Shown here piece after piece: positions 8,437 to 33,815 of a stretch of DNA of 64,000 nucleotides. How positions within the stretch are numbered: the first letter of the stretch is position 1; every line of letters begins with the position of its first letter. A program made the position numbers and the translations under genes. This stretch comes from Candidatus Omnitrophota bacterium (lineage in GTDB: Bacteria; Omnitrophota; Gorgyraeia; JAGLLT01). The stretch spans positions 24,295-88,294 of the forward strand of contig JAGLLT010000002.1 of NCBI GenBank assembly GCA_023140385.1, read 5' to 3'. The notes beneath the pieces are model-generated. The model was not told the origin of the DNA and did not search any database. It saw nothing but the letters and a program-made list of their open reading frames with translations.

Positions 8437-11400
8437 ATGAATAGCAATATTGAAAAGAAAACCGATTTATTGCGGGATTTAGGTATAATTTTTTTATTAA
8501 GCCTTGTGCCCCTGATTTGGTTCAAAGGCGGAATAGCGGTGGCTGGTTCAGACGCTGTTTATCCGCTGTACAATCCCATCCAGTTTTATACAGCACGCTT
8601 TTTTATGTGGGATTCCCGCTATGGCGCCGGTATGCCATCTTCTATATACGCTACAAGTTTATTTTATTATTTGCCTCAGGTTATTTGCAATTTTTTCGGT
8701 ATGTCAGCAATCGCATCGCAAAAGATTCTTTTTGTTTTTTGGTTTTTTATGATGGGAGCGGCCATTTATTACATGGTTGCTGTTATTCAGGTAAAAGCGA
8801 ATCGCCTGCAAAGATTAATTGCTGTTTGTTTTTATACCTTTAATCCGCTGGTATTTAATATTTGGGAAGCGGGAAAAGCTGCCAATATTTCAGCTTATGT
8901 TGCTATGCCGGTAATATTAGCCTTTATAATTAAGGGATTAAGAAAAGATATAAGTTACTTTAAGGCTGCTATTTACATAGGACTATTTTCATTATTAGTG
9001 TCTGAAATGGGAGCCAGCCCTCCTATTTTTGCTATTCCTCTTTTGTTAATTACGTCTTACGCGATTTTCTATAGTATAAATAAACTGCTTTCAAAGAATG
9101 CGTTCAAAGACATAGGCAAAGCTATAAGCTTTTTTGTATTAATCATCTTGATTTTTGCGGGCCTAAACGCTTTTTGGTGGTTACCGTATTTGCGTGAAAT
9201 TTTTGTAAGGCTGATTGCCAGCGCGGAATCCGGGTTAGGGGCATTCAATTTGACTAACTGGCTTAAGGGTATAAGCACCCACACCTCTATTTTAAATGTT
9301 TCTCGTTTTCAGGGGGCGTGGGATTGGTACTATAATGCCAGAGATAATGTTCCTTATGTTCCTTATGCCAAAGTGTATTTTACTAATCCTTTTTTTATCT
9401 TTTGGAGCGTATTAATTCCCGCGACGGCTTATGCTGCGATTATTGTTAAAAAGAAATTTCATGAAGTTTTTTTTGTTGTTTTATGTGTAGTAGCCACGGT
9501 TTTAGGCTGCGGCGCTCATATGCCCACGGGTAAATTTTATTTGTGGATGACTGAAAATGTACCTTTTTTTCAGGTATTTAGAAGTCCGTACTATAAATTC
9601 GCGTTAATAATTTCCCTGGCATACGCGTATTTAATAAGTGTTACTTTGGCGTATGTGTATAAGAAAGTGAAAAACTCTTGCGAAAGAATCTTTTCGCGGC
9701 AAAAAAAGTATCTTATTAGGATAATACCCCCAACAGTAATAGTAATAATTTTATGCGGTAATTTTGTCTATAACTATCCAATGTTAAACGGACAGGTTAT
9801 TAGAATAAGAGAACCTGAAACATCTTTTTCTGTTGGCATAAAAGTTCCGGCTTATATAATTAATTTTGTCAAATACATGGATAGTCAAAAAAATGATTAT
9901 CGCGTTATCGCGTTGCCATCTTTACCGCTAAACGGATATAGATGGGGATATGTGGGGCCGCCGCATTTGCTCACCTTACTTTCATCAAGATCTATCCTGA
10001 GTGGTAGTGGTGGCGCTTCATATGCTGATAAGCTAAAAAATGTTTATTATAACGCGCTTTATGACAAAACTACACCATTAACTGCTCAAATATTAAAGGT
10101 TTTAAATGTAAAGTATATTTTAGTTCATAATGACGCCTGGTATGATTTCTTTAATTTCAAACTTTCTCCCGCTTTTCTGAAAAGTGCTTTATCTTATCAA
10201 GGAAAAATTGATTTATTAGGTAGTTTTGGAAAGTGGCAATTATATCAAAATCAGGATGATCCGGTTTATATTGGGGGAGCATTCGGTTTAGCTATGTTAG
10301 TCGGCGAGATGTCAGCTTTTGCTCCGTTAAGTTATATTAATGTTATGAATGACTTGCCCGTTATTTTATCCAGTCAAAAAATAAATCATGCTTTCATTAA
10401 AGAGGAACTTGATAGAGGAATTGAGAAAGTTTTCTTTTATAATGCTGATTTTTCTGATTTTGTATTTAATTTTATAGAGCCCGAACATAAAATTACTATA
10501 CTAAGTAACGATATACATAGTAATAACGGACTTATATTTAATTTTGAGGTAAGCATCGACGGTTTGTATCAAGTATGGATTGAACGGGATATATGCAGTA
10601 TATATAACCGCAATTTTAATGTAAAAATTGATGGACAAGCCGGGCAGGCCGGAAAGGATCTAATTCAGGACGATTTTTCTTTGAAATGGATTAACATCGC
10701 GAATTTTAATACAAAAAAAGGAAAACGCGTTATTGAACTAGGTTTAACCAATCAGGAAAAGAACTTGCTCGGAAATAAGGATATTAATTTAATTATATTG
10801 CCCAAATCTACTTTTGATACCTATAATGATTTATACCGTAATTTATTATTGACTTGCTTAAAAAGAAAAGGTAAAGGTTTGACATATTTTTTGTCATCAG
10901 AAAAAATGCAATCAGAGGTCAGATCCGAAGGTACTCAATGGAGCGGTGAATGCGATAGTCCAAAGTTAAGTAATGTTTTTAACTTTAAAAAAGATCCGGG
11001 AGAAGAGAAATGGAACTGGTTAATATTAGATAACGAAAAAACCATTAGTATAAGTAATAAAAGCAATGAAGAAGTTGTTACTAATGTTAAATTTGACGTA
11101 TTTTCATATGAAATAGATAGATATTTATATTACTATGTAAACGATATATATTTGTCAATGTGTTTTCTGCCGAAAGATAAGGCTCGTACAATAATTTTAA
11201 GGGGTATTAAATTAAAACCGGGTGATAATTATATTTCATTTTATTCTCCCGATAGAGGAAGTCGTAAATATGGAAGAAGTGTATCGTGCGCTTTTAAAGA
11301 TGTGGCTATAGGCAATGAATATTATAAAAGTGGCGTGTATATACCGAAATCGGGTGGTTACAATATTAGAATTTACCCTTATGATGACTTAGTTAGTGAA

Positions 11401-11952
11401 AACATTCAAACAAAGAATAAAAAGGTTTGTTTAGATGAAAAAGAAATATCATTTGGACTGAGAAATTTAAATGGTGTTAATTATTACGCGCATGAAAGCA
11501 TTTTTTTATCTGAAGGTTCGCATAATATTAACTTTAGGCAGATGAATATGGGTAAATGTTATCTTGAAATATCATCAAAAGTTAAGAATCAAGAATTTTT
11601 ACATCCTCTTAAGTACAAAAAAATTAATCAAACCAAATACAATGTTTCATGCGATAAAGATGAAATATCTTTTTTGTTTTTTCATGAAGCTTTTAACTCA
11701 CAATGGGAAGCACATATTATTAATCATGAATCAGGTAAAAAGTCTAAACTTAAACCCCATTTTATAATCGATGGCTACGCGAATGGATGGAAGGTTGACG
11801 GACCCGAGTATAAAAAAGGCTCAACTATAGTAATTAACTATAAGATACAAAACTTATTTTATTTAGGCCTATGTATTTCACTTGTTACTCTTGTTATATC
11901 TTTATCTTACCTATATTATAATTGCAAAAAGAAGGGACGTTGTAAAAAATGA
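8437..11952 (+). CDS. Giant (1171 aa) polytopic membrane protein, putative YfhO/GT-C-type extracytoplasmic glycosyltransferase (paralog family member 1)
   Basis: N-terminal ~13 TM helices with 'PLIWFK', 'SAIASQKILFVFWFF', 'NVSRFQGAWDWYY' and 'RSPYYKF'. A ~600-aa hydrophilic domain follows. The C-terminal 'FHEAFNSQWEA...DGYANGWKVDG' is followed by a final TM anchor. Four paralogs share these motifs. Confidence 0.55.
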   Translation: MNSNIEKKTDLLRDLGIIFLLSLVPLIWFKGGIAVAGSDAVYPLYNPIQFYTARFFMWDSRYGAGMPSSIYATSLFYYLPQVICNFFGMSAIASQKILFVFWFFMMGAAIYYMVAVIQVKANRLQRLIAVCFYTFNPLVFNIWEAGKAANISAYVAMPVILAFIIKGLRKDISYFKAAIYIGLFSLLVSEMGASPPIFAIPLLLITSYAIFYSINKLLSKNAFKDIGKAISFFVLIILIFAGLNAFWWLPYLREIFVRLIASAESGLGAFNLTNWLKGISTHTSILNVSRFQGAWDWYYNARDNVPYVPYAKVYFTNPFFIFWSVLIPATAYAAIIVKKKFHEVFFVVLCVVATVLGCGAHMPTGKFYLWMTENVPFFQVFRSPYYKFALIISLAYAYLISVTLAYVYKKVKNSCERIFSRQKKYLIRIIPPTVIVIILCGNFVYNYPMLNGQVIRIREPETSFSVGIKVPAYIINFVKYMDSQKNDYRVIALPSLPLNGYRWGYVGPPHLLTLLSSRSILSGSGGASYADKLKNVYYNALYDKTTPLTAQILKVLNVKYILVHNDAWYDFFNFKLSPAFLKSALSYQGKIDLLGSFGKWQLYQNQDDPVYIGGAFGLAMLVGEMSAFAPLSYINVMNDLPVILSSQKINHAFIKEELDRGIEKVFFYNADFSDFVFNFIEPEHKITILSNDIHSNNGLIFNFEVSIDGLYQVWIERDICSIYNRNFNVKIDGQAGQAGKDLIQDDFSLKWINIANFNTKKGKRVIELGLTNQEKNLLGNKDINLIILPKSTFDTYNDLYRNLLLTCLKRKGKGLTYFLSSEKMQSEVRSEGTQWSGECDSPKLSNVFNFKKDPGEEKWNWLILDNEKTISISNKSNEEVVTNVKFDVFSYEIDRYLYYYVNDIYLSMCFLPKDKARTIILRGIKLKPGDNYISFYSPDRGSRKYGRSVSCAFKDVAIGNEYYKSGVYIPKSGGYNIRIYPYDDLVSENIQTKNKKVCLDEKEISFGLRNLNGVNYYAHESIFLSEGSHNINFRQMNMGKCYLEISSKVKNQEFLHPLKYKKINQTKYNVSCDKDEISFLFFHEAFNSQWEAHIINHESGKKSKLKPHFIIDGYANGWKVDGPEYKKGSTIVINYKIQNLFYLGLCISLVTLVISLSYLYYNCKKKGRCKK

Positions 11953-13406
11953 AGATAATGATTTCATATCCGCCGATACCGAATGCTAAAGGAATACCTA
12001 TGCTTGGCCAGAACAGGCAGTTTCAATATTTTCACAATCCATCTTATATATACCCTATGGTACCCGCTTCCGCGGCTACTTTATTGCAGAGTCAAGGTTA
12101 TAAAGTTATCTGGAATGACTGTATTGCTAAAAGCATATCCTACGAACAGTTTATTGATATTTTTAAAAAGGAAAATTCCGATTTAATCGCGATTGAAACA
12201 AAGACACCGGTAGTAAAAAAGCATTACGCTATAGTAGATGAATTAAAAAAAATCAATCCAAAATGTATAGTTGTCCTGATGGGTGATCATATAACCGCGT
12301 TTCCGGATGAAGCTATGAACAGCTGTAGGGTTGATTACTGCATAACGGGTGGAGATTACGATTTTCTATTATTGAATATTTGCAAGTATATTGAAAATAA
12401 AAATTTACTTGAAAAGGGGATTTGGCATAGAGATGGAAAGCAAGTTGTTAATACAGGTAAATTTGAATTGAATCACGATTTGAATACATTACCCTTTATA
12501 GACAGGGAATTGACTCAGTGGAGTGATTATGGAGAGAAGCTTTATAAAGGAACCCCGTTTACCTATACAATGGTAGGCCGTGATTGCCCCTGGGCTAAAT
12601 GCACATTTTGTTCATGGACGACTCTTTTTCCGAAATTTAGGACACGTACTCCTAAAAGTCTTTTGGATGAAATTGGTTTTTTGATTGAACGTTACGGCAT
12701 AAAAGAGATATTTGATGATACCGGAACCTTTCCTTCGGGAAAATGGTTGGAAACTTTTGCTCAGGGTATGATTGAGAGAGGCTATAATAATAAAATATAT
12801 TTATCGTGTAATTTTAGATTTGATTATTTAACTCCGCAAAGAGCGGCACTAATGAAACAGGCGGGCTTTAGACTTATGAAGCTTGGGTTGGAGTCGGCGA
12901 GTGACGAAACTCTAAAACGCTTAAATAAAGGAAGCCGCGTTGATGATATAATAAATGGCTGCAAAATAGCCAAAAAAGCTGGCCTGACGGTTCATCTTAC
13001 TATGATGGTTGGCTATCCCTGGGAAACAAAGGAAGATATGTTAAAAACATTTAAATTAGCCAGGTATCTTATGCTAAACGGTTATGCCGATATGCTGCAG
13101 TCAACGACAGTAACAGCATATCCTGGTACTCCTTTATATGATCAGGCCTTGAAGAATGACTGGCTTAGGGTAGACCCGCGTGATTACGAAAGATTTGATA
13201 TGGGTGAGCCGGTATTCAAAAATCCAAATATCAAACCTGAAGAGATAACGCGAATTTGCAATCAAATATACAAGATTTTTTTGCATCCCAAATTTATATT
13301 TAATCATCTTAAAAAAGTTAGATCATTTGAAGATATTACCTATTTACTGAGAGGCGTAAAGCCGGTGCTGGGGCATATCAGAGATTTTATGAAAATAAGG
13401 AGATAA
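11949..13406 (+). CDS. B12-binding-domain radical SAM enzyme (class B), atypical Cx4Cx2C cluster motif
   Basis: N-terminal Rossmann-like B12-binding region ('YPMVPASAATLLQSQGYKVIWNDC'). The cluster motif is 'CPWAKCTFC'. The 'LGLESASDETL' region is radical SAM-like. There is a 4-nt overlap with the upstream giant gene. Confidence 0.75.
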   Translation: MKIMISYPPIPNAKGIPMLGQNRQFQYFHNPSYIYPMVPASAATLLQSQGYKVIWNDCIAKSISYEQFIDIFKKENSDLIAIETKTPVVKKHYAIVDELKKINPKCIVVLMGDHITAFPDEAMNSCRVDYCITGGDYDFLLLNICKYIENKNLLEKGIWHRDGKQVVNTGKFELNHDLNTLPFIDRELTQWSDYGEKLYKGTPFTYTMVGRDCPWAKCTFCSWTTLFPKFRTRTPKSLLDEIGFLIERYGIKEIFDDTGTFPSGKWLETFAQGMIERGYNNKIYLSCNFRFDYLTPQRAALMKQAGFRLMKLGLESASDETLKRLNKGSRVDDIINGCKIAKKAGLTVHLTMMVGYPWETKEDMLKTFKLARYLMLNGYADMLQSTTVTAYPGTPLYDQALKNDWLRVDPRDYERFDMGEPVFKNPNIKPEEITRICNQIYKIFLHPKFIFNHLKKVRSFEDITYLLRGVKPVLGHIRDFMKIRR

Positions 13407-13409
13407 TTT

Positions 13410-14102: not shown

Positions 14103-14113
14103 AGGTTTAATTT

Positions 14114-15640
14114 ATGCTTAAAGATTATCTTATCGCGTTAGTTACCGCTTTGATCGGCCTATTTATACAAATAAGGCCCCGGCTTAGCAACCGGTATTTT
14201 GGTATTGATACATGGAGGCACTTATCGGTCGCTGACTATATAAGGAAGAATAAAAAATATCCAAAGTTAATGCCTGAACATTACCTTATTAATAAGCCTT
14301 CTGATTATCCTCCGTTTTTCCGTTTTTTATTAGCCTTGTTTCCAAAAAAAATGCTGGAAAAATATCAGTGGTTTGTTTCACCGCTCTTTGATTTCGCGCA
14401 CAATTTATTCCTTTTTAGTGTAGTTTATTGTTTTACGGGTAATTTTCTTATTTCGTTTTTTGCTCAAATAACCTATATGTTAAGTCCTATAGTTGTTATG
14501 GAAAATTCGAATCTGACAACTCGTTCCTTTGCTTCGCTGTTATTCAGCGGGTCTTTCTTTTCCCTTATCTGCTACACTACATTCGGAAATTATTTTTACT
14601 TGTTGATATCGGTTTTTCTCTTAACGATATTGTTATTGTCCCATCGGATGTCTATTCAGGCAATTTTTTTCCTTCTTGTAATTTTTTCACTAATTGAATA
14701 TAATTTCACATACATAGCCGTGTTAGCGGCTTCTATTATAATAGCCGCTCTTATCTCAAGAGGTTTTTATTTAAAAGTTCTTAAAGGGCACTTGGCTATG
14801 ATTAGATTCTGGTTCATGCATATTGATAATAGATACGCCCATCAGATAAGAGGATCTTTAGCAAAAGATCAAAAAAACCCCGATGCGGTCTTCAGAATAT
14901 ATCAGCTTGTCCAAAATATACCCTTCATAGCTGTTTTCGCCGCGAATCCTTTTATTATATTTGTTCTCGCGTATCTATATTTTGACAAAATCAAGTTTTA
15001 TAATTTAAATACATTCGGTATTCCGCAAATGCTATTTTCGAAATTTGTTATTTGGAGTATTTTGTTGTTTGTAATCGGTGTAATAGTCAGACAGATAAAA
15101 AAGTTAGGCTGTATTGGAGAAGGCGAGAGGTATCTGGAATATTCAGCGTTTCCCATAGCGATCGTTACGGCTGTATTTATTATAAATGGACTGACAAGAG
15201 GCCAATGGGGAATATTTTTAACGTTTTTGATTGTAGCTGTATTTGGAGCGCTGCTGCCAACGCTCTTTATACAACAGCAAGTTATAGTTAAAGATTCTAA
15301 GCGCTCTGTTAATAGCGATTTAAGAGGAATTTTCGATTATATAAATTGTATACAAGGTAAGGTGAACATTATGACGATACCTTTATATCTTGCTGATGCC
15401 GCGACATATTTTACTTCTGCCAGACTGCTTACAACCGACAATTCTATAGCCCACATAGTTGATTATAGCGATTTTTTTCCGGTTTTAAAAAAGCCCTTAA
15501 GTGAAGTTTTTAAAAGATATGATATAAATTATCTTTTTATTAATCAGGAGTATGTTAAACTATCTGAATTAAGTTTGCCTAAAAATAAAATAGTAAAAGA
15601 AAGTGGTTCCTATTGCTTAATTAAGGTACTATGTAAGTAG
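14114..15640 (+). CDS. Polytopic membrane protein, putative GT-C (ArnT/PMT_2-like) glycosyltransferase; paralog of 4774-6303
   Basis: Same architecture and motifs as 4774-6303 ('YFGIDTWRHLSVADYIRK...PSDYPPFF', 'AHQIRG', 'GEGERYLEYSAFP'). Confidence 0.5.
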   Translation: MLKDYLIALVTALIGLFIQIRPRLSNRYFGIDTWRHLSVADYIRKNKKYPKLMPEHYLINKPSDYPPFFRFLLALFPKKMLEKYQWFVSPLFDFAHNLFLFSVVYCFTGNFLISFFAQITYMLSPIVVMENSNLTTRSFASLLFSGSFFSLICYTTFGNYFYLLISVFLLTILLLSHRMSIQAIFFLLVIFSLIEYNFTYIAVLAASIIIAALISRGFYLKVLKGHLAMIRFWFMHIDNRYAHQIRGSLAKDQKNPDAVFRIYQLVQNIPFIAVFAANPFIIFVLAYLYFDKIKFYNLNTFGIPQMLFSKFVIWSILLFVIGVIVRQIKKLGCIGEGERYLEYSAFPIAIVTAVFIINGLTRGQWGIFLTFLIVAVFGALLPTLFIQQQVIVKDSKRSVNSDLRGIFDYINCIQGKVNIMTIPLYLADAATYFTSARLLTTDNSIAHIVDYSDFFPVLKKPLSEVFKRYDINYLFINQEYVKLSELSLPKNKIVKESGSYCLIKVLCK

Positions 15641-15672
15641 TTAAAATATAACAAGGCAGGCGGAGGAGTTAA

Positions 15673-16638
15673 ATGGCAAGAATATTGATTACAGGCGGAG
15701 CTGGTTTTTTAGGTTCATATTTGTGCGAAAAACTGTTAAAAAAAAGTAATAGTGTTATTGCCCTTGATATGTCAGACGGTTCAAAGGTAGAGCATCTTAT
15801 GGATAAGAAGGGTTTTCAATTCATTCAGGGCTCTGTTTTAGATAAAGACTTAATGGAAAGGGAGGTTTCTAAGGCAGATATGGTTTTTCATTTTGCGGCT
15901 ATTGCCGATCCAAAACGCTATATTCAGGAGCCATTAACCGTACTTGAGATAGATTTGCAGGCATCTTTAAATATTTTTAAAACGGCTGCCATGCATAAAA
16001 CAAAAGTTGTCTTTGCCTCAACCTCTGAATTATACGGGCGAAATCCCAATATACCCTGGAAAGAAGATGATGAGAGGGTTCTGGGTTCAACAGCTATAAA
16101 CAGATGGTGTTATTCTACGGCTAAGGCTGCTTCCGAGCATTACCTTTATGCTTACAATCAGCAAGAAGGTTTACCTTTTGTAGTGGTTAGGTTCTTTAAT
16201 GCTTACGGCCCCAGGTTGGATGATCTGGGCTCAGGACGTGTTATTCCTATATTCTTAAAGCAATTTTTAATGAATGAACCTATTACAATTCATGGAGACG
16301 GATCCCAGACCAGGACATTTATATATGTTGATGACGCGGTTGACGCGGTATTAAAAGTCGCGTTCTGTAAAAAGGCGGAGCAAGAAGCTTTTAATATTGG
16401 CTGTACGGATGAAATGTCCGTGTTAAATATTGCTAAGGTAATAAAAAAAGTAGGTAAATTTAATTCGAAATTCAAATTTATTCCGCATAAAAAAGTTTTT
16501 GGAAGTAAATATGAAGATATACCGCGAAGAGTGCCAAGCATAAATAAAATTAAAAGTTATTGCAATTGGCAGCCATCGACTTCTTTGGAAGACGGCTTAA
16601 TGAAGACTATTGAATATTATAGGAAAAAGGTTATTTAG
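15673..16638 (+). CDS. Extended SDR, ArnA C-terminal-domain/UXS-like UDP-glucuronate 4-oxidase/decarboxylase
   Basis: 'ILITGGAGFLGSYL' is the NAD motif. 'FHFAAIADPKRYIQEPL...VFASTSELYG' and 'RWCYSTAKAASE...RFFNAYGPRLDDL' closely parallel the ArnA dehydrogenase domain ('LVAIATPIEY...STSEVYG', 'RWIYSVSKQL...RPFNWMGPRLDNL'). Confidence 0.8.
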   Translation: MARILITGGAGFLGSYLCEKLLKKSNSVIALDMSDGSKVEHLMDKKGFQFIQGSVLDKDLMEREVSKADMVFHFAAIADPKRYIQEPLTVLEIDLQASLNIFKTAAMHKTKVVFASTSELYGRNPNIPWKEDDERVLGSTAINRWCYSTAKAASEHYLYAYNQQEGLPFVVVRFFNAYGPRLDDLGSGRVIPIFLKQFLMNEPITIHGDGSQTRTFIYVDDAVDAVLKVAFCKKAEQEAFNIGCTDEMSVLNIAKVIKKVGKFNSKFKFIPHKKVFGSKYEDIPRRVPSINKIKSYCNWQPSTSLEDGLMKTIEYYRKKVI

Positions 16639-25700: not shown

Positions 25701-25834
25701 AACATGATATAATAATATCTTATTTTCCGCAGAGACTTTTTATAATTTTAGCTTTGGTTTCATTATTGGCATGCCTTGGGTGTTTTTTTACATTATTTAT
25801 ATTGGGCAGGCGCTCTAAGTTTGCAAAAAGTTAA
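22754..25834 (+). CDS. Giant (~1026 aa) polytopic membrane protein, putative YfhO/GT-C-type glycosyltransferase (paralog family member 2)
   Basis: Motifs 'PLLWFK', 'SLIATQRIIFTFWF', 'NVMRLQADWSWYG', 'RSPYFKF' and C-terminal 'FNESYGAAWQLY...NGFSNGWYVDK' plus a terminal TM. The ORF track extends to 22655, but the ATG at 22754 (MLKRKK) avoids overlap with the upstream MT. Confidence 0.55.
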   Translation: MLKRKKLIYNFILIVFGLTPLLWFKPQMMLKTSDLRLPVSWEQWNNLLYVWNHTLAAGASRLLDTSLILFWTPSAILSKFGVSLIATQRIIFTFWFMLTAFCSYYMFRKLLTGKWRLLAALTATSFYLYNLWPESYWVGFKPPLVAGYAVLPVIIALIIATFNKEINYKKSAMYIALVSLVASSIGNNPSEFIGLIAPVVILFFYFFTRKKCWKEKKEFLFFAKFSGLTLLLFIICNSYWLGLQASMLWQNISSGVYASSVPTSLNWLRGISTQTSFLNVMRLQADWSWYGGCVDPYRSYSAFYRSNFIFLGLSYIAPLLACLGAIISKNKNKLYFIILGLIGIVLSMGAHFPFEGSYIWLVRNIPLFWIIRSPYFKFGLLICLAYSFLIGVACQKMCQWLERIKIYRAPYFFAAIIIIINITYAFPVSLGKMFHDEEIRSFLAADHVSVPDYVLDTANWLNSKEGFFRVYTVPGDSPWITSWNYVGYGSIIQNYIRMPVVFKYTSDYILYSQGAENQSRPIVEALEKSIFGQSNYDVAKMLALLNIKYVVQENDVRFDFYKGPGFVEGDSPEFMKNKLNSLKDIEFERSFGKWDVYKVNKEIPYIYSASKINLIVGKLNNLTPKLSSEFLDKPALLFTDKINDDHIELLKNNLVENLIINGNAESAARALENAREVLKKNSFQYLIHSSDIVPTLIDEPNIALNLEGFSKPEALFQNQTWRWITASNLEPNIILNNSTSENKYVNLKFLVYSYKRKRTLHLYLNEEALKIVYVPRDEATEVMIEGIKLKPGKNIIAHYSPDQCDVRNERKVRFALSDISFKGRKFTSKIIIPKDGNYLIRASWLMAPAARVSRLVAIDGKELKTSLNNDGKALVAPKSHLSKGTYNIEVKQSNQQDYYIEIIPISCQKGEIQIQPLEFTMINPTKYKINSSIKYPLIFFNESYGAAWQLYSKGADKNVYKHFETNGFSNGWYVDKSFEISDEHDIIISYFPQRLFIILALVSLLACLGCFFTLFILGRRSKFAKS

Positions 25835-25839: not shown

Positions 25840-25856
25840 AAGGCGGTTGCGGCCTT
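25840..25856 (+). terminator. Weak hairpin (AAGGC-GGTTGCG-GCCTT) just after the stop of the giant gene; no T-tract
   Basis: A perfect 5-bp stem with a 7-nt loop lies 6 nt after the stop codon. No U-run follows, so at most it is a partial terminator or attenuator. Confidence 0.25.
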
Positions 25857-25913
25857 GAAATGGATAGTCTTACTTATAGCATCATTTATGGGAAATTTAG
25901 GTTTTTTTGCCCA

Positions 25914-25941
25914 TTGAAATATATTGTTGCAAAACTATAAA
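25914..25941 (+). promoter_or_regulatory. Sigma70-like promoter (-35 TTGAAA, 16-nt spacer, -10 TATAAA) upstream of the carbamoyltransferase
   Basis: The elements lie in the only >100-bp intergenic gap of the 52-kb array. RBS 'aaagggga' precedes the ATG at 25956. Confidence 0.4.
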
Positions 25942-25955
25942 TAAAGGGGATATTA

Positions 25956-27608
25956 ATGTATATTTTAGGCATTACAGCACCAATTTCCTGGAATAGCGCC
26001 GCCTGTTTGATTAAAGATGGAGAATTAATAGCGGCAGCGGAAGAAGAAAGGTTTACCCGCATTAAACACGCGCCTCGGATACCTCCCGTGAAAGCAACTA
26101 AATATTGCCTGAACGAAGCGGGTATAAATATGAATCAGGTTGATTATATTGCTGTAGGCTTTAGCTCACCCTTAGTATATGGCCTAAAGAACCTTATTGA
26201 TGAAACCAAAGAATTGAATTTTGATAGATATCTTCAGCAGATTGGCTCTGTATTTGAATATAAGATAATAATGTATAAATTAAAAGTTACCTTTAAAGAA
26301 ATTGATCCCAATATCGCGAATAAAAAGTTTGTTTTTTTCCCCCACCATGTTTCGCACGCGGCCAGTGCCTATAGAGTTAGTGGATTTGATAAAGCAAATA
26401 TTATAACTCTTGATGGAAGTGGCGAAGATGATTCCGGCATGTTAGCAGTAGGTGAAGGTAAAGATATGCGAATATTAAATAAAATCAAACTTAGAGACTC
26501 TCTTGGCGGTCTTTATAGTAATACCACGGATTTATTGGGTTTCGTTCGTCATAGTCAAGAAGGAAAAATAATGGGGCTTGCGGCTTATGGGAAGTTAATA
26601 CCGAAATTAGAAAAAAGTATACTTAGACAAAAAAATGATATGTATTATTTAAAAAAATGGTATTACAAATATCTTTGGAAAGAATTTGGCCCTCGTAGAA
26701 AGGAAAACGAAGAATTAACGGAGTTGCACAAGAACATAGCTTGTACCGTTCAGGATATTGTAGAAAAAGCGGGTATAATAGCCGCGAAGAAATTAAATAA
26801 AGAATCTAATGTAGATAAATTTTGTCTTTCCGGCGGCGTAGTTCTAAATTGCGATATGAACGCGAAAATATTAAATTTACCGTTTATTAAGGACATTTTT
26901 ATTCAACCGGCGGCTCATGATGCCAGTTCTGCTCTTGGAGCCGCCTTTGAGCTTTACGCAAGGCTTGGCGGTAAATCCAAGTTCGAAATGTCTCATGCGT
27001 ATTGGGGTCCTGAATATTCAAACGAAGGTATTTTGAAGGTTTTAAAAGAGGCGAAAACGAAGCACAAATATCATGAGAATATCGAAGAGGAAACGGCCCG
27101 CCTTATCGCGGAGGGTAATTTGATTGGTTGGTTTCAGGGCAGAATGGAATGGGGCCCGCGCGCGCTGGGAAATCGATCTATTCTTGCTCATCCGGCAAAA
27201 GAAGGTATAAAGGATAAAGTAAATCGCGAAGTTAAACATAGAGAAATGTGGCGTCCTTTTGCTCCCTCTATACTTGAAGAAGATGCTCCAAGGTACGTTG
27301 AAAATTACTACCCTTCTCCATTTATGCTGTTGACATTTAATGTTAAGCCGGAAATGAGAAAATATTTATCTCAAGCAATGCATGTAGATAATACTGTGCG
27401 ATTGCAAACCGTCAATAAACAAACGAATTCAAGATATCACGAATTAATTACCCAGTTTAAAAAGATGACTAATATACCGGCCTTATTGAATACCTCGTTT
27501 AATGATAGGGGAGAACCGTTAGTCGAGAGTCCTAAAGATGCTCTTAGAACATTTTATTCTACCGGTTTGGATTATTTAGTTCTCGGTAATTATATAATAG
27601 GAAAATAA
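25956..27608 (+). CDS. NodU/CmcH-family carbamoyltransferase
   Basis: 'MYILGI...SWNSAACLIKDG', 'FFPHHVSHAASAY' and the C-terminal Carbam_trans_C-like region ('WRPFAPSIL', 'NTSFN') fit the family. Confidence 0.85.
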   Translation: MYILGITAPISWNSAACLIKDGELIAAAEEERFTRIKHAPRIPPVKATKYCLNEAGINMNQVDYIAVGFSSPLVYGLKNLIDETKELNFDRYLQQIGSVFEYKIIMYKLKVTFKEIDPNIANKKFVFFPHHVSHAASAYRVSGFDKANIITLDGSGEDDSGMLAVGEGKDMRILNKIKLRDSLGGLYSNTTDLLGFVRHSQEGKIMGLAAYGKLIPKLEKSILRQKNDMYYLKKWYYKYLWKEFGPRRKENEELTELHKNIACTVQDIVEKAGIIAAKKLNKESNVDKFCLSGGVVLNCDMNAKILNLPFIKDIFIQPAAHDASSALGAAFELYARLGGKSKFEMSHAYWGPEYSNEGILKVLKEAKTKHKYHENIEEETARLIAEGNLIGWFQGRMEWGPRALGNRSILAHPAKEGIKDKVNREVKHREMWRPFAPSILEEDAPRYVENYYPSPFMLLTFNVKPEMRKYLSQAMHVDNTVRLQTVNKQTNSRYHELITQFKKMTNIPALLNTSFNDRGEPLVESPKDALRTFYSTGLDYLVLGNYIIGK

Positions 27609-30600
27609 TGGATAAATCAAATAAAAAGTACCTTCTATTATGTTTATTAATAATTTTCATATGGGGCTTGGTGCCCTTGCTGTGGTTTAATAAGGGCATG
27701 ATTATAACCTCGGATGATATGAGGTTACCTTTAACAATTAAACAATTTAACTTATCTTGGTATAGTTGGAATAGCCTGTATAATACAGGCCTAAATTATA
27801 ATGTTCAGTTTGCCGCTTTAACCTTTTTTATCCCACAGGCCTTTCTTAGATTATTTAATTTATCTGTTATTTCTATACAAAAAATTCAATTTATAATTTG
27901 GTTTATACTCCCCGGTTTTTCAATGTTTTATATGATGACCCAGTTATTAAAATGTAAAGCTAAGTATATTGCCTCTTTAGCGGCAGTTAGTTTTTATATG
28001 TTCAATCTATATTTAGATCCCATTTGGTTAGGATTTAATATGGCTAATATTGCTCTATATAGCGTTCTTCCTTTTGTAGTCGTAGTGTTTTTTAAAGGCT
28101 TAGAAGGGAAGTATAGCATTATAAAAGCGGCTGCTTTAATAGCTTTAGCCTCTCTCGCAGGTTCGGCCAGCGGAGCTAACCCGCCGTTATTATTAGCCGT
28201 CATACCAATACTTTTTTTATCTTTTTTTATTTATTACCTATACGCCGTCAAAACTAAAACTATTTCTATGTCCAAGGGCCTAAAATTCTTTTTTAGATAT
28301 CTATGCCTTGTAATACTCCCTGTGATTTTAATTAATTCATTTTGGTTGATACCAAGAATAGGTGAAGTGTTTTATAGTGTTTCTGATAGTGGTTTTTCCT
28401 TTCTCTCCAAGGATGACGCTTTGCAGTGGTTACAAGGCATAAGCGCTAATTCTTCTATATGGAATGTGGCGCGTCTTCAAGGTATGTGGACTTGGTATCA
28501 GGGGTGGAAAGAGCCTTATTGTCCTTATGCCAGTATTTTTAGGGAAAATATATTCTTTCTTGCCCTTAGCTGCCTTTTACCTTTAATGGTACTTATTGGT
28601 ATAGTCACCTGCAAAAATCGTTATAAGGTTTTTTTCGCGCCTCTTACCGTTTTAGCTTTAATTTTTAGTATGGGTGTTCACGCTCCTTTCGCGAATGTAT
28701 ATTTGTGGTGTGTTAAATACGTGCCTTTCTTCTGGATAATAAGAAGTCCCTGGTATAAGTTTACATTACTTACTTGCTTGGGATACGCGTTTTTTATTGG
28801 TGTAGCCGCCGTGAATATATATAAATTTATAAATAATAGAAAGTGGCGTCTGGTAATTTTTGCGAGGCGGGCTCTAATCGCCGGGTTCATTATTTTTAAT
28901 ATGGTTTATGCTTATCCGGTAGTATTCGGCAAATTTTTTGTTTCTCCCGAAGAGAGAAAATATTTGCCCCCAAACCATGCTGTTATACCCGACTATGTAC
29001 TTGAGTTTAGTAAGTATATAAATAGCAAAGATGAATACTTCAGAATTATGGATTTACCGGATAGTCAATATTGGGCTTATAATTGGGGCCTTTCGGGGGC
29101 AACACCTTTTGTAACTCAGATTTCTCTTAAACCGGTTCTGTTTAATATTTATACGCAATTAGCCGGAAGTGAAAGCAAGGATGTTACCACTGCTTTTTAT
29201 GACGTTTTGTATAATAAAGGATTTCCGGCGGTTAAACTGCTTAATATCCTCAATGCAAGTTATGTATTACAAGAAAATGATGTTAATTATATAATTCCGG
29301 ATAATGGAATCGATTCTCCGGAATTTGTTAAGGAGAGATTAAGCAGGCAGAGGGAAATCAAACTCGAGAAAAAATTTGGAAATTGGGATTTATATAAAGC
29401 TGATGTTGATTTACCTTATATATATATTAAAAACAAGGCGACTTTAATTAAAGGTGGATTGGGGGTTTTAGCCGCGTTAACTAATACAAATTTATTAGAT
29501 CAGCCTCTCTTAATATTTGAGGAGCGGCTCAACAAAGAACTTCGTAAAGAATTTTTTGAAAATAGTATGTTTAGCGAGGTTGTTTTTTATAATTACGATT
29601 TTGAAACTGGAGATAACAGTTTTATTGATATTCAAGAAAATTCGTTAAATTACTTTATATTTTTGGATAGTTCCCGGATGAATGTTGGTTTTGTAAACAA
29701 AACAGAAGGCAGGCAAAAACAGATAACAATTAAGTATAATACAGGTTTTTTTGATGAGACCGTAACCTTTGATGATGAGAATGCCTGGTATGTTTTGAGT
29801 GAAAATAATAAAGAGCATATTATTATAAACAATACGTCAGTCTCACCTCAAAAGATAAATTTGGCTTTTAACGCTCATGCTTTTGGTAGAGATAGAAATC
29901 TTTATGTTTATATTAATAATGAGTATATTAATTTTTTTCCTGTAGTAAATGAAGAAAGCAAGCAAATCATTTTAGAAAATATGTTACTTCAGCCCGGTGA
30001 AAATATCCTTTCTTTTGCTAATGTTGCCGCAAGCGATAATTATGACGGCAAACTAGTTAGCTTTGCCATAAAAGATGACGCCGCGTTAGGAAAATTTACC
30101 TTTAATAAGCCAATAGATTTAGCGGAAGAAGGTGAATATTCTATAAGGTTATATCCCTATCCTCTTGAAACTTACGATACGCTGCCTGAGCAATATGAAA
30201 TCTCTATCAATGGTGACTCTATAAAATTAGAAAAACATAGAAAAGACAATACAATTGTATATTCTAAAAAAACTAATTTAAAAAGCGGTATACAAGTAGT
30301 AAAAATAGAACAGGTGAATTCCGGCGAAAATTATGTAATAAGTATTTGCCCGCTTGATAATAAAAGAGATAATTCCCGCGTTTCAAAGGTGAATTTTGAA
30401 AAAATTAATCCTACGGAGCACAAAGTATTTGTTGATAAACCTGACTCATATTTTCTAGTATTTAATGAATCATATCATTCCCAATGGCGCGCTATTGAGG
30501 CTTCCGGTGATGAATTAACCAATCATTTTGTTGTTAATGGTTACGCGAACGGCTGGTATGTAGATAAAATAAAGAGTCAAGAGCTAACGATTCAATATAA

Positions 30601-30712
30601 GCCTCAAATTCTTTTTATAATAGGCTGCATTATATCTATTATAACCTTTTGTACTTTGCTTTGTTTGCCGATGATAATATCTAAGGTTGAGCGAGGGCAT
30701 GAGTCTAATTAA
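27608..30712 (+). CDS. Giant (1034 aa) polytopic membrane protein, putative YfhO/GT-C-type glycosyltransferase (paralog family member 3)
   Basis: Motifs 'PLLWFNKG', 'SVISIQKIQFIIWF', 'NVARLQGMWTWYQ', 'RSPWYKF' and C-terminal 'FNESYHSQWRAIE...NGYANGWYVDK' plus a terminal TM. The ATG overlaps the stop of the upstream gene. Confidence 0.55.
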   Translation: MDKSNKKYLLLCLLIIFIWGLVPLLWFNKGMIITSDDMRLPLTIKQFNLSWYSWNSLYNTGLNYNVQFAALTFFIPQAFLRLFNLSVISIQKIQFIIWFILPGFSMFYMMTQLLKCKAKYIASLAAVSFYMFNLYLDPIWLGFNMANIALYSVLPFVVVVFFKGLEGKYSIIKAAALIALASLAGSASGANPPLLLAVIPILFLSFFIYYLYAVKTKTISMSKGLKFFFRYLCLVILPVILINSFWLIPRIGEVFYSVSDSGFSFLSKDDALQWLQGISANSSIWNVARLQGMWTWYQGWKEPYCPYASIFRENIFFLALSCLLPLMVLIGIVTCKNRYKVFFAPLTVLALIFSMGVHAPFANVYLWCVKYVPFFWIIRSPWYKFTLLTCLGYAFFIGVAAVNIYKFINNRKWRLVIFARRALIAGFIIFNMVYAYPVVFGKFFVSPEERKYLPPNHAVIPDYVLEFSKYINSKDEYFRIMDLPDSQYWAYNWGLSGATPFVTQISLKPVLFNIYTQLAGSESKDVTTAFYDVLYNKGFPAVKLLNILNASYVLQENDVNYIIPDNGIDSPEFVKERLSRQREIKLEKKFGNWDLYKADVDLPYIYIKNKATLIKGGLGVLAALTNTNLLDQPLLIFEERLNKELRKEFFENSMFSEVVFYNYDFETGDNSFIDIQENSLNYFIFLDSSRMNVGFVNKTEGRQKQITIKYNTGFFDETVTFDDENAWYVLSENNKEHIIINNTSVSPQKINLAFNAHAFGRDRNLYVYINNEYINFFPVVNEESKQIILENMLLQPGENILSFANVAASDNYDGKLVSFAIKDDAALGKFTFNKPIDLAEEGEYSIRLYPYPLETYDTLPEQYEISINGDSIKLEKHRKDNTIVYSKKTNLKSGIQVVKIEQVNSGENYVISICPLDNKRDNSRVSKVNFEKINPTEHKVFVDKPDSYFLVFNESYHSQWRAIEASGDELTNHFVVNGYANGWYVDKIKSQELTIQYKPQILFIIGCIISIITFCTLLCLPMIISKVERGHESN

Positions 30713-33700
30713 GCGCGGATCAACTATAAATTCACTGATAATAGTAATTCTTGGATTATGTCCATTACTATGGTTTAAGAATGGTTATCTTATTAAAACC
30801 GAAGATATAGGGATTCCTTTAAGCTATAGCGAGTGGACTAATTATTTGTTTTCCTGGTTTAATCAAAGAGCTGCCGGCACATATCCCGTAGATAACTTCG
30901 CGGCCATATTTTTCCTTTCACTGCCAGCTGTATTGCAAAAAGCGGGGCTTTCCATAATTGCCTCGCAGAAAATACAATTTATTTTCTGGTTTATGCTCTC
31001 AGGTTTTTCCATATACTATCTGATAGTTGCCCTCAATAAGGGTAAGCACCCCAACTCTTTAATAGTCTTACCGGCTGTTATCTTTTATATGTTTAATTTA
31101 TATCTTGAGCCGGTTTGGCTGGGATTTAACATTGCAAATTTATCCGCGTACGCGGGTATACCTTTTTTGGCCGGTTTTGTAATTAATGCTATAAATTCAA
31201 AAAGGTATTTTAAGTATTTATCCCTTGCGGGCCTTCTTGGAATTATCTTATCGGGAGTAGGTGTTAATCCGCCCATTATGTATGTAGCTGTTTTGTTTAT
31301 GGTGCTTTGGCTGGCCTATTGTTTTATCGTACATGTCATTAAAATAAAAACAGTTACGTCCGCGAGATTTATCACTTTTGTTCTATCTTTGGTTTTAATA
31401 GTTACTTTGGTTAACGCGTTTTGGATTTATCCTCAGGCGAAGAGGCTCTTGCATTCAACTGAGTTAAAACCGCTTACGGAATATAAGGAAACTGTGGAGG
31501 AGGGGATAAAGGAGCGATCCAAGCATACCAGCCTTCTTAATGTCTCAAGATTTCAGGCGGCGTGGACCTGGTACGAGGATTATGAGGACGATCCTTATGT
31601 GCTGTATAGCGAGTTTTATAAGAAAAATAAGTTTTTTATCTTATTAAGTATTATCCCGGTTATAATAGTTTTTCTATCTTGTTTTAATTTAAAGGGGCAG
31701 GTTTATTTACCTTTTTATATTCTGCTTAGTTTGATGGGTATTATTTTTGCTACCGGTATACATGCTCCATTTTCAACTTTAAACACGTTTTTAGTAAAAT
31801 ATATACCAGGATTTTGGATGATAAGAAGCCCCTGGTATAAGTGGTCTCTTTTTACGGTATTGGGTTTCTCGGTATGTATATATTATTTGGCGAAAAAGGT
31901 TTTTAGGCTCTGGCCAAAGCAAAAGCTAACTTTTGGTTTTTTAAGTGTTTTTGTTTCTGCGTTGTTTCTTATTTATGCCTTTCCGATTGCAAGCGGCCGC
32001 ATGTTTACCTCTGAAGAGGAGCGCCATTACATACCTCCGCAGCATATAAAAATTCCCGCCTATGTTTTTGAAGCAGCTCAATGGTTTAACAATCAAAAAG
32101 ATTTTTGTAGAATTATGCTCCTGCATTCAAACGCGCGGCGCATAACTGATTGGGGATATTCCGGATATGAACCGGTTTTATCTTACTTCACACATAAACC
32201 GCTTATTGTTCCAATTGCAGCCGATTCATACGGTTCACCATACTCAATTCCTAATTTTAAAAATCTTCTTTATAGGTGGCTGTACATAAATAAAGAAGGC
32301 AAAAATGAGCGTGAGTCGTTAGTTAATGTTAAGAAACAAAATTCAGACAAAGTGGCAATATCTATTTTGCCCATGTTCAATGTTAAATATTTACTCTATG
32401 AAGGCGATATAAGATGGAGTTTTTATGACCATTATGAATCACCCGAATTCATAGAAGCTAAACTCGCTCTGCAGAAAGGGGTTAATCTTGTTAAGAAGTT
32501 TGGTAGATGGAAAATATATGAAATTGACAAGAAGCTCGATCATATCTATGCCGCGAGTAAGATAAATATTCTTGATGGTGATTTAGAAATGCTTGAAGCC
32601 CTAAGCCGGACAAATTTATTAAATTATAACAATGTATTTGCCCATGATATTGATGACTCTTTTTTTGCTTATATCAAAAAGCATAATTTAATAGACAAAA
32701 CCTTCTTTTATAACAGAGTTAATTTTGACAATGAGACGCGAAAAAATTCTTACATGCTATTATCCACTAAGGATGCTGATATTTTTTCAATTAAAGATGT
32801 GCCGGACGCGGCCGCCGGTAGAAATATTGAAATGAAGTTTAATAAAGATACTTATGAATCATACCAAATTAACGAAAGAAACTATTATTCTTTTAAAGCT
32901 GACGGCTCAGCCCTGGAAGCGGAAATTGTGAATAATGGCAATTCAGGAATGCTGATTAACATAAGGCTGAATTGCCTTAACGGTTCAGATAAATTTATTG
33001 ATGTTCATTTAAACGATCGTTTAATAAAAAGGTCTTTTGTAGAAAAGGGTGAAAATAAGTACATAAAGTTAGAATCATTAAATATTAAACCAGGGCATAA
33101 TTATATAACCTTTTCCGCGCCGCGCTCAGAAGACAATTCTATTACAGCTTTTTCTTCAAATGTTGGCTATTATTGTCATGAGTTTATAACTTCGCTGAAT
33201 TTTGCAAAAAATGGAAATTATTTAGTTGAGCTTTACGTCTTTCCCGTCAATCAAGTAGAAGATCTTAATAAGTCTAAAGATTTTTATATAAATGATGATG
33301 CTTTGCGTCTTGATTATAATGAATCGAATACCGCGTATACTTCTGCAGAAAACGCTAAATTTTTTGAAGGTAAGAATGTGATTAGATTCTTACGTCAAAA
33401 ACAAGAGGATTATTATGTTTTGATTAAACCATTGTCTTCACCTCAGGATAATGAGTTTTTTGAACTGAAATTTAATTTTTTAAATCCGGTTCAATATGAA
33501 GTTGAATTTGATGGAATAGACACCGAATGTTTATTTTTATTTTTCAACGAGGCTTATGATAGTAATTGGATAGCAGCCGAGAGGCAAACGAATAAGGTTA
33601 TTACTAATCATTTTACGGCCAATGGATATGCTAATGGATGGTTGCTCAGTGAGTTGCAAAACAATGGACAAACAAAATGCGTTATGTTAAAATATGAAAT

Positions 33701-33815
33701 TCAAGGTCAATTTTACGCGGGACTTATAATAAGTGGCTCCATTGTACTAATTTGTTTGATTCCAATAGTTGTAATAATTTTTAGTGGTTTGAATAATAAA
33801 AGGAAACGATTTTGA
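30699..33815 (+). CDS. Giant (~1038 aa) polytopic membrane protein, putative YfhO/GT-C-type glycosyltransferase (paralog family member 4)
   Basis: Motifs 'PLLWFKNG', 'SIIASQKIQFIFWF', 'NVSRFQAAWTWYE', 'RSPWYKW' and C-terminal 'FNEAYDSNWIAAE...NGYANGWLLSE' plus a terminal TM. The start is ATG 30699 or TTG 30687; either overlaps the upstream paralog by 14-26 nt. Confidence 0.55.
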   Translation: MSLIKRGSTINSLIIVILGLCPLLWFKNGYLIKTEDIGIPLSYSEWTNYLFSWFNQRAAGTYPVDNFAAIFFLSLPAVLQKAGLSIIASQKIQFIFWFMLSGFSIYYLIVALNKGKHPNSLIVLPAVIFYMFNLYLEPVWLGFNIANLSAYAGIPFLAGFVINAINSKRYFKYLSLAGLLGIILSGVGVNPPIMYVAVLFMVLWLAYCFIVHVIKIKTVTSARFITFVLSLVLIVTLVNAFWIYPQAKRLLHSTELKPLTEYKETVEEGIKERSKHTSLLNVSRFQAAWTWYEDYEDDPYVLYSEFYKKNKFFILLSIIPVIIVFLSCFNLKGQVYLPFYILLSLMGIIFATGIHAPFSTLNTFLVKYIPGFWMIRSPWYKWSLFTVLGFSVCIYYLAKKVFRLWPKQKLTFGFLSVFVSALFLIYAFPIASGRMFTSEEERHYIPPQHIKIPAYVFEAAQWFNNQKDFCRIMLLHSNARRITDWGYSGYEPVLSYFTHKPLIVPIAADSYGSPYSIPNFKNLLYRWLYINKEGKNERESLVNVKKQNSDKVAISILPMFNVKYLLYEGDIRWSFYDHYESPEFIEAKLALQKGVNLVKKFGRWKIYEIDKKLDHIYAASKINILDGDLEMLEALSRTNLLNYNNVFAHDIDDSFFAYIKKHNLIDKTFFYNRVNFDNETRKNSYMLLSTKDADIFSIKDVPDAAAGRNIEMKFNKDTYESYQINERNYYSFKADGSALEAEIVNNGNSGMLINIRLNCLNGSDKFIDVHLNDRLIKRSFVEKGENKYIKLESLNIKPGHNYITFSAPRSEDNSITAFSSNVGYYCHEFITSLNFAKNGNYLVELYVFPVNQVEDLNKSKDFYINDDALRLDYNESNTAYTSAENAKFFEGKNVIRFLRQKQEDYYVLIKPLSSPQDNEFFELKFNFLNPVQYEVEFDGIDTECLFLFFNEAYDSNWIAAERQTNKVITNHFTANGYANGWLLSELQNNGQTKCVMLKYEIQGQFYAGLIISGSIVLICLIPIVVIIFSGLNNKRKRF

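Follow-up and report, generated by a model that had tools for sequence, protein, structure and literature searches.

Four anciently diverged AftD-like GT-C paralogs in a glycan gene cluster of a Candidatus Omnitrophota bacterium

We analyzed a 64,000-nucleotide stretch of DNA from a Candidatus Omnitrophota bacterium (assembly GCA_023140385.1, contig JAGLLT010000002.1, positions 24,295 to 88,294 of the forward strand; hereafter, the window), which carries four paralogous giant membrane proteins (paralogs 1 to 4; Table 1) within a cluster of genes for a glycan, or sugar polymer. Tightly packed, co-directional open reading frames (ORFs) on the + strand extend from 112 to ~49,350 of the window, and the glycan cluster comprises ~49 kb and ~40 genes; housekeeping genes (UDG, PriA, Fmt, GAPDH, and PGK) start after ~49,318. 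Because the window begins inside the cluster, the cluster may continue upstream of window position 1. No tRNAs were found in the window, and scans of the window for promoters and terminators gave no excess over shuffled sequences and were uninformative on operon structure.

The four ORFs share one build, as a sequence-only reading of this DNA, made without database searches, had proposed. In a MAFFT alignment of the four proteins, identity to paralog 1 over the full length was 27–32%, far above chance, with ~110 invariant columns; by region, it was 30–37% in the membrane core, 24–36% in the first periplasmic domain, 20–32% in the beta-sandwich region, and 23–38% in the C-terminal box and anchor. 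The proteins are 1026–1171 aa long, not 1034–1171 aa as first given, since paralog 2 counts 1026 aa from its ATG. Hydropathy and an AlphaFold2 (AF2) model of paralog 3 indicated ~11 N-terminal transmembrane (TM) helices, fewer than the ~13 of the sequence-only reading, and one C-terminal helix; the large hydrophilic domain of that reading is present, at ~550 aa instead of ~600 aa. The open frames of paralogs 2 and 4 open earlier, at 22655 and 30687, than the ATG codons at 22754 and 30699, and an N-terminal alignment backs the ATG at 22754 as the start of paralog 2. Paralogs 3 and 4 overlap by 14 nt.

The motifs quoted in the sequence-only reading were all found in the alignment. The four paralogs have in common PL(L/I)WF(K/N), ..Q(K/R)I.F..WF, NV.R.Q..W.WY, and RSP(Y/W)(Y/F)K(F/W), together with a C-terminal box, FxE..//H...(N/D)G(Y/F)(A/S)NGW, that is followed by a TM helix. 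In each of the four proteins, that helix is the one hydrophobic segment that follows the soluble domain, and the model ends with a single helix (residues 998–1032). An acidic residue predicted in the first outside loop is conserved across the family: D37 (paralog 3 numbering), which the paralog 3 model places in the loop that follows TM1, is present in all four paralogs and in 45 of the 46 members from which we built a family profile, the remaining one being gapped. K384 is likewise present in 45 of 46 members, and every family-invariant residue, including D37, R379, and K384, is kept in all four paralogs. An extra insertion of ~130 aa in the soluble region of paralog 1 (~residues 700–860), missing from the other three paralogs, has a weak match to Golvesin_C (E = 0.007); it could represent an additional beta-sandwich or carbohydrate-binding module (CBM). 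Paralog 3 is 100% identical to the Candidatus Omnitrophica protein KAJ66_00310 (P0001), from a metagenome-assembled genome (MAG). The deposited protein has 890 aa, 86% of the ORF at 27608–30712; the public gene call appears to be truncated at the N-terminus and would thereby lose the invariant Asp37 together with the initial TM helices.

Domain libraries recognized the single proteins poorly. In Pfam, GT-C_AftD (PF11847; gathering threshold 26 bits) passed for paralog 1 only, and paralogs 2 and 3 had no PF11847 match; no NCBIfam model matched any of the four. Across the family the signal was clearer: 22 of the 46 members matched PF11847 at E ≤ 0.1 (best 3e-16), and seven of ten sampled relatives passed its threshold, narrowly. 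DUF6541 was matched by five members. YfhO (PF09586), the assignment favored by the sequence-only reading, was matched by one member marginally (E = 0.001) and by none of the four paralogs at E ≤ 0.1. STT3 and PMT_2 had also been named as families to check. STT3 had no Pfam match among the four paralogs or the family members and was similar only at the second tier of structural matches, and the segment corresponding to its WWDYG motif reads W-(G/N)-(Y/L)-x-G, with no Asp; the PMT and PMT_2 family models (PF13231, GT83/GT39) did not match the four proteins either.

Profile searches and structure prediction both led to AftD, which the sequence-only reading had listed, as DUF3367/AftD, among its candidates. 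A search of the PDB with a profile of the four sequences gave no match. The 46-sequence profile was needed, and with it hmmsearch retrieved the AftD structures of M. abscessus (6W98/6WBX, E = 2.6e-17) in a collinear match comprising the first periplasmic domain, the C-terminal box, and the following TM helix; within it, profile positions 906–1022, which take in ES..W, NG..GW, and the TM helix, align to AftD chain positions 1161–1281 (domain E = 1.8e-8). Aligned with hhalign against a full-length Rhodococcus AftD, the family gave a probability of 98.7% (E = 1.6e-15) over 1041 columns. This AftD was rebuilt from a frameshifted gene, the frameshift being bridged with five consensus residues; an AftD-fragment search of a large sequence database had returned N-terminal fragments only (≤345 aa). 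A frameshift within the conserved segment SPPFLDxIES splits the gene in question, aftD of Rhodococcus sp. MTM3W5.2 (CP019572.1; locus L024, 6001–10430), into two calls (309 aa and 1180 aa); either the sequence is in error or the gene is a pseudogene.

The AF2 model of paralog 3 (pLDDT 89.6, pTM 0.86) has, in its N-terminal membrane domain, the helix arrangement of solved GT-C enzymes, in agreement with the GT-C-type membrane glycosyltransferases proposed from the sequence. Foldseek placed three AftD entries at the top over the full length (E = 2e-23 to 9e-20, TMq 0.52–0.61), followed by STT3, PglB, DPY19, ArnT, and AftA, with AglB, AftB, and Emb proteins also among the structural matches. We consider it near certain that the four paralogs are GT-C enzymes of the AftD/DUF3367 superfamily and not of YfhO.

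The paralogs and AftD (Rv0236c and its M. abscessus counterpart; 6W98, 6WBX, 6WBY; PF11847, formerly DUF3367) have the same module order, with an 11-TM GT-C core, a periplasmic alpha/beta domain, and then beta-sandwiches, which in the paralogs are CBM-like; the soluble domain of AftD contains three CBMs. As mapped by sequence-profile alignment, and not by structural superposition, they share an invariant Asp in the first outside loop followed by W-N/D and Gly motifs, an R..W loop motif (AftD R267/W272 aligning with family R289/W294), and an R/P/K motif before TM10 (AftD R357-K361-P364, family R379-P381-K384), where the RSPWYK of the family aligns to PLRNxHKLEP of AftD. The C-terminal box is common too, reading ...ES.N.GW.A....VNGWQQGW... 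in AftD, where TM12 follows. Because the box and the next TM helix align to AftD, NGYANGW is a feature of the AftD superfamily and not, as had been suggested, the mark of a distinct clade.

The same comparison sets the paralogs apart from AftD. Identity between the family and AftD is only 11–15%, the paralogs (1026–1171 aa) and most of their relatives (~1000–1250 aa) are shorter than AftD (~1400 aa), and AftD has five C-terminal TM helices where the family has one, the hhalign alignment stopping at AftD residue 1370 of 1476, ~106 residues short of the end. In AftD, a C-terminal four-helix bundle, TM13–16, binds acyl carrier protein (ACP; 2019 AftD structure study); since a single TM helix follows the soluble domain of the paralogs, they lack this bundle. 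Mutagenesis has identified K39, D41, E251, K361, and D474 as essential in AftD (2019 AftD study). Two of these have near counterparts: family D37 aligns not to D41 but to the invariant Asp of PDTKLD four residues before it, so that exact equivalence is ambiguous, and the conserved K384 lies one to five positions off K361. Family members come in arrays that comprise two to four ancient paralogs; aftD, by contrast, is single in the one Rhodococcus locus examined (L024), as it is in mycobacteria. AftD homologs had been found only within Actinobacteria (2019 AftD study), and the family reaches beyond them to Omnitrophota, Chloroflexota, Nitrospinaceae, Planctomycetia, Patescibacteria, and others.

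Partner genes differ as well, with a carbamoyltransferase, an ArnC-like glycosyltransferase of family 2 (GT2), and the memA proteins described below in place of the acyltransferase TmaT and the decaprenyl-phospho-arabinose (DPA) pathway of AftD. TmaT (Acyl_transf_3) was recently reported to be the obligate partner of AftD in a 1:1 complex. An Acyl_transf_3 gene, likely a TmaT homolog, adjoins aftD in Rhodococcus L024; the window had no match to Acyl_transf_3, and none of the scanned window ORFs carried DPA-pathway domains (UbiA-type, DprE1/E2). The 367-aa protein encoded after paralog 4 was considered as a TmaT analog and rejected because it has no similarity to TmaT. Because essential residues, the ACP-binding bundle, the TmaT partner, and the DPA genes differ or were not seen, we file the paralogs as members of the AftD superfamily, not as AftD orthologs or arabinofuranosyltransferases.

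Relatives at 25–75% identity came from uncultured genomes only and were distributed over Omnitrophota, Nitrospinaceae, Planctomycetia, many Chloroflexota, an Actinomycetes MAG, Saccharibacteria, Berkelbacteria, other Patescibacteria, and a gammaproteobacterial MAG. A hidden Markov model search with the 46-member profile recovered 23,085 cluster representatives at E ≤ 1e-3, a total that presumably includes classical AftDs, 11,496 at E ≤ 1e-10, and 4,683 at E ≤ 1e-30. These numbers point to a large, unstudied AftD-type branch outside Actinobacteria. The sequence-only reading had called the system undescribed, which is true insofar as our literature search found no paper describing non-actinobacterial AftD-like enzymes or their arrays, and goes too far insofar as the superfamily is in Pfam and NCBI has named a few members.

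To place the paralogs among these relatives, we built a neighbor-joining tree from 50 members of the family, all full-length, that are encoded in the window or in 23 related loci (numbered with the prefix L). Each window paralog clustered with proteins of other genomes and phyla, not with its own neighbors: paralog 1 grouped with L004_5060 (Planctomycetia MAG) and L008_7589; paralog 2 with L001_4291, L007, L003 (Nitrospinaceae), and L016 (Actinomycetes MAG); and paralog 4 with L001_13071 and L004_9244. The paralogs are anciently diverged, and the tree rejects a recent tandem duplication. At least two copies lie within ~23 kb in 19 of the 23 related loci, often overlapping or 4 bp apart, and the Chloroflexota members form three subfamilies in a fixed gene order. 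The ancient split, the conserved multi-copy loci, and the retention of the invariant residues in all four copies together argue for non-redundant catalytic roles.

Some relatives depart from the common build. Chloroflexota loci carry an extra ORF of ~900 aa on the opposite strand (L006 15137–17929(-), L009 16207–19074(-), L011 18397–21066(-), L014 19533–22265(-), and L013 15410–18199(-)) that matches the family profile weakly, at E from 2e-9 to 2e-20, and may be a more distant paralog; a ~370-aa unknown ORF is also conserved there between the first and second paralogs. Some relatives from the Patescibacteria group are encoded in ORFs of nearly double length, at ~1700–1960 aa (L021 3779–9658; L018 2–5440; P0295, 1932 aa; P0282, 1756 aa; P0319, 1705 aa), and may be fusions or have large extra domains.

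Table 1. The four paralogs and neighboring features of the glycan cluster, by window position
Feature	Coordinates	Strand	Length, matches, and context
memA1	4774..6303	+	509 aa; 42% identity to memA2; GT-C fold inferred from the memA2 model
DegT/PseC/ArnB-type sugar aminotransferase	6338..7432	+	DegT_DnrJ_EryC1 2e-119; PseC 2.8e-92; ArnB 4.2e-79
S-adenosylmethionine (SAM) methyltransferase MT1	7447..8430	+	directly upstream of paralog 1; Pfam Methyltransf_23/11; homologs in 13/23 loci
AftD-like GT-C paralog 1	8437..11952	+	1171 aa; PF11847 GT-C_AftD E=1.1e-6, 27.4 bits (cut-off 26), residues 45-509
B12-binding radical SAM enzyme	11949..13406	+	overlaps the end of paralog 1 (stop codon); Pfam Radical_SAM, B12-binding; HpnJ/BchE-like class
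memA2	14114..15640	+	508 aa; AF2 model pLDDT 93, pTM 0.92
Short-chain dehydrogenase/reductase (SDR), UDP-4-keto-pentose/UDP-xylose synthase-like	15673..16638	+	PRK11908 E=2.3e-65, 220.9 bits (cut-off 294); ArnA C-terminal domain 2.1e-55
GCN5-related (GNAT) acyltransferase, weakly WecD-like	16644..17654	+	Pfam Acetyltransf_1; NCBIfam dTDP-4-amino-4,6-dideoxygalactose acyltransferase E=4e-11
ArnC/GtrB/PgfS-like GT2	17717..18664	+	NCBIfam ArnC 7-314/316, E=1.8e-72, below equivalog cut-off; PgfS 5.7e-55
AsnB-type glutamine amidotransferase	18673..20559	+	TIGR03108 E=5.7e-185, 616.6 bits (cut-off 816.9); resembles the XrtA/PEP-CTERM amidotransferase associated with exopolysaccharide (EPS)
Second B12-binding radical SAM enzyme	20571..21995	+	Pfam, NCBIfam
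AftD-like GT-C paralog 2	22754..25834	+	1026 aa from ATG; in Pfam, DUF6541 match only, weak
NodU/CmcH-type carbamoyltransferase	25956..27608	+	between paralogs 2 and 3; Pfam Carbam_trans_N, Carbam_trans_C
AftD-like GT-C paralog 3	27608..30712	+	1034 aa; structure-modelled protein
AftD-like GT-C paralog 4	30699..33815	+	1038 aa from ATG; PF11847 E=7e-4, 18.1 bits, under cut-off
Three membrane or anchored proteins after paralog 4	33812..37014	+	367, 308, and 387 aa; syntenic in L001 and L004; stops and starts overlap
mem593	37017..38798	+	593 aa; hhalign against the TM-domain profile of the paralog family: probability 85%, E=5.8e-6, 321 columns

The cluster encodes further membrane proteins for which a GT-C fold is predicted. 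Pfam and NCBIfam gave no match for memA1 or memA2, and none of 73 memA homologs carries a Pfam domain. The memA2 model matched STT3, AglB, PglB, DPY19, and ArnT in Foldseek (E ~1e-6, TMq 0.5–0.6), oligosaccharyltransferase catalytic subunits being the best matches, and memA has an invariant first-loop Asp32 in the motif YFGVDTW. Judged by this model, memA is a GT-C family not covered by the domain libraries; its homologs occur in seven of the 23 related loci. The protein mem593, with no Pfam match and no similarity to the memA profile, is kept downstream of paralog 4 in L001 (79% identity) and L004 (54%), and its profile alignment (Table 1) suggests that it is probably a short GT-C protein related to the AftD-like TM core. 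The locus thus holds six, and probably seven, GT-C enzymes. Pfam and NCBIfam had no matches for the 367-, 308-, and 387-aa proteins that lie between paralog 4 and mem593.

A donor synthase had also been predicted, as a CsbB/GtrB-type GT2, and the gene at 17717–18664 indeed encodes a full-length ArnC/GtrB/PgfS-like enzyme with two C-terminal hydrophobic (TM) segments. It is a putative polyprenyl-phosphate sugar synthase that would make the donor, and homologs adjoin the paralog arrays in nine of the 23 loci. The SDR and GNAT genes lie directly upstream of it and the DegT aminotransferase further upstream; SDR relatives also occur in nine of the 23 loci, at 50–57% identity in six (L002, L003, L007, L011, L014, and L019). 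By homology, the GNAT is a putative enzyme for N-acylation of an amino sugar, and the SDR, GNAT, DegT, and ArnC-like proteins resemble an Arn-type route that would lead to a lipid-linked (amino)pentose. The cluster also encodes cytoplasmic transferases of families GT2 and GT4. Other genes would serve to decorate the sugars. Among these are at least five SAM methyltransferases and two class-B radical SAM enzymes; the latter have homologs in L005, L008, and L014 and hint at a radical reaction, such as C-methylation, on the sugar or the lipid carrier.

The carbamoyltransferase occurs in 13 of the 23 loci, with 82% identity in L001 and 52–57% identity in nine loci not labelled Omnitrophota. Beyond single genes, the region ~7447–45902 of the window shows synteny across phyla with 5060–22382 of L004, the Planctomycetia MAG, over more than 10 consecutive genes. 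Those shared include paralog 1, MT1, paralog 4, the three unknowns, mem593, DUF3108, GT1_2, GT2c, GT2d, MT4, and DegT2, and they are mostly 38–72% identical to the window, with unk308 at only ~23%. This synteny, together with the identity of the carbamoyltransferases, suggests horizontal transfer of the cluster or else mis-binned contigs.

We propose that the paralogs are ancient AftD-like GT-C enzymes that carry out several extracytoplasmic, polyprenyl-phosphate-sugar-dependent steps in the elaboration of a glycan, and we consider this probable. The relationship to AftD, the GT-C fold, the conserved residues, the age of the paralogs, and the recurring gene neighbors are shown by the data; donor, acceptor, linkage, and division of labor are inferred. 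The ArnC-like GT2 would make a lipid-linked donor, possibly via the adjacent Arn-like UDP-4-keto/amino-pentose route, a supply that is supported by the presence of the full-length ArnC-like GT2, SDR, DegT, and GNAT in the cluster. Each paralog would then act at the outer surface of the cytoplasmic membrane, moving a sugar from a polyprenyl-phosphate-monosaccharide to a growing envelope glycan, with the RSPWYK motif (R379–K384), at the membrane interface, contacting the polyprenyl phosphate, and, of the mixed alpha/beta domain and CBM-like beta-sandwiches that lie outside the membrane, the beta-sandwiches binding the glycan acceptor. Each copy would form a different linkage or serve a different step, adding or branching a sugar on one envelope glycan, so that the paralogs, the two memA proteins, and probably mem593 would constitute an extracytoplasmic assembly line of several GT-Cs, and cluster enzymes would methylate, carbamoylate, amidate, and N-acylate the sugars. 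Multi-step extracytoplasmic glycan elaboration, which the sequence-only reading had suggested, is the best reading of the GT-C fold, the invariant Asp, and the ArnC/GtrB-type GT2 of the cluster.

Several observations weigh against this proposal. A profile limited to the TM domain had no match in the PDB, and its hhalign alignment with N-terminal fragments of AftD was collinear and weak (E = 9e-4, probability 23%), so that equivalences to AftD residues in the TM core are approximate. AftD K39 has no conserved equivalent in the family, E251 falls in a variable, low-confidence loop without a conserved equivalent, and the position opposite D474 (WGLTRDE), within WG(Y/F/L)xGxxP, is not conserved; active-site chemistry may therefore differ from that of AftD. 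No Wzx, GtrA, or ArnE/F flippase, initiating phosphoglycosyltransferase, polymerase (Wzy), or ligase (WaaL) was recognized in the window, so that the pathway as seen is incomplete, and no ABC exporter was recognizable in the glycan cluster (window 1–49350). Furthermore, the second-best structural matches of the paralog 3 model are oligosaccharyltransferases, for which reason a protein acceptor has to be considered. In that case, the paralogs would be oligosaccharyltransferase-like enzymes that glycosylate proteins, such as S-layer proteins or pilins, instead of elongating a glycan. The rank of STT3, PglB, and AglB next to AftD for paralog 3, and the oligosaccharyltransferase subunits that head the matches of memA, speak for such a role, which we nonetheless think unlikely.

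The remaining explanations are less probable still. Were the paralogs true AftD orthologs, they would be arabinofuranosyltransferases building an arabinan from decaprenyl-phospho-arabinose. AftD is their closest characterized relative, NCBI labels some members as 'alpha-(1->3)-arabinofuranosyltransferase family protein', and the neighboring SDR resembles a pentose-forming UDP-GlcA decarboxylase; against these stand the low identity to AftD, the absence of conserved K39, E251, and D474 and of the ACP-binding bundle, the lack of any UbiA-, DprE1-, or TmaT-like gene found in the window, and the presence of four ancient paralogs where Rhodococcus L024 has a single aftD, and we judge orthology quite improbable. 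It is also conceivable that only one or some copies are catalytic, the rest serving in a hetero-oligomer as scaffolds or glycan-binding subunits with no enzymatic activity. The tight or overlapping spacing and the order fixed in several phyla would fit a complex, and AftD itself works complexed with TmaT, but all four copies retain every family-invariant residue, D37, R379, and K384 included, which makes inactive subunits very improbable; a complex of active enzymes is compatible with our proposal. The sequence-only reading had favored YfhO-type GT-Cs glycosylating teichoic-acid-like polymers with donors made by CsbB/GtrB. YfhO belongs to the GT-C superfamily, has an N-terminal TM bundle, and needs a GtrB/CsbB-type donor synthase. 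The common GT-C fold, the GtrB/ArnC-like GT2, and the one marginal match among the 46 members agree with this view, whereas PF09586 matches none of the four proteins, nearly half of the members match GT-C_AftD, and AftD is by far the best match in both sequence profile and structure. Teichoic acids are not known from Omnitrophota. We rejected the YfhO assignment and regard this explanation as scarcely credible.

Our preferred reading, several AftD-like enzymes acting on one envelope glycan, has parallels in two known systems. The Arn pathway, which modifies lipid A with L-Ara4N, has counterparts in the cluster: an SDR like the ArnA C-terminal UDP-GlcA decarboxylase/UDP-4-keto-pentose synthase, an ArnB-like aminotransferase, and a full-length ArnC-like GT2, along with GT-C enzymes as final extracytoplasmic transferases. 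It differs in that the matches of the cluster all fall below equivalog cut-offs, a GNAT stands in place of the ArnA formyltransferase, no ArnD, ArnE/F, or ArnT was recognized in the cluster, and the cluster has six or seven GT-Cs (the AftD-like proteins with CBM-like domains, and memA), whereas Arn has one. The mycobacterial arabinan and mannan line (AftA-D, EmbA-C, PimE) is alike in concept, as several GT-Cs fed by polyprenyl-phosphate-monosaccharides build one extracytoplasmic glycan. It belongs to other organisms and differs in its sugars and accessory chemistry, which in the cluster is carbamoyl, methyl, and amide, and here the GT-C genes occupy one co-directional locus and four of them are from one family.

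More tentatively, we suggest that the arrays, memA, the ArnC-like GT2, the carbamoyltransferase(s), and the methyltransferases form a conserved, probably horizontally mobile extracytoplasmic assembly line for a novel methylated or carbamoylated envelope polysaccharide, possibly containing (amino)pentose, in many uncultured lineages of Omnitrophota, Chloroflexota, Nitrospinaceae, Planctomycetia, and Patescibacteria. Such a line would fill, outside Actinobacteria, the role that arabinan synthesis has in mycobacteria, and memA would be a new glycosyltransferase family; we regard this wider picture as possible rather than probable.

AftD is essential in the cell-envelope pathway of mycobacteria, and the proteins of this window belong to a large radiation, probably sister to AftD, that Pfam barely detects and whose four members here NCBIfam misses, while memA represents a further GT-C family overlooked by current domain libraries. 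Recognizing them would help with metagenomes, in which thousands of giant membrane proteins labelled 'hypothetical' could be annotated better, and the invariant D37 and R379/K384, together with the ArnC-like donor synthase, are concrete targets for finding the glycan. Fixed sets of ancient paralogs with conserved accessory genes across uncultured phyla suggest that the building of envelope glycans outside the membrane by many GT-C enzymes is not an actinobacterial specialty.

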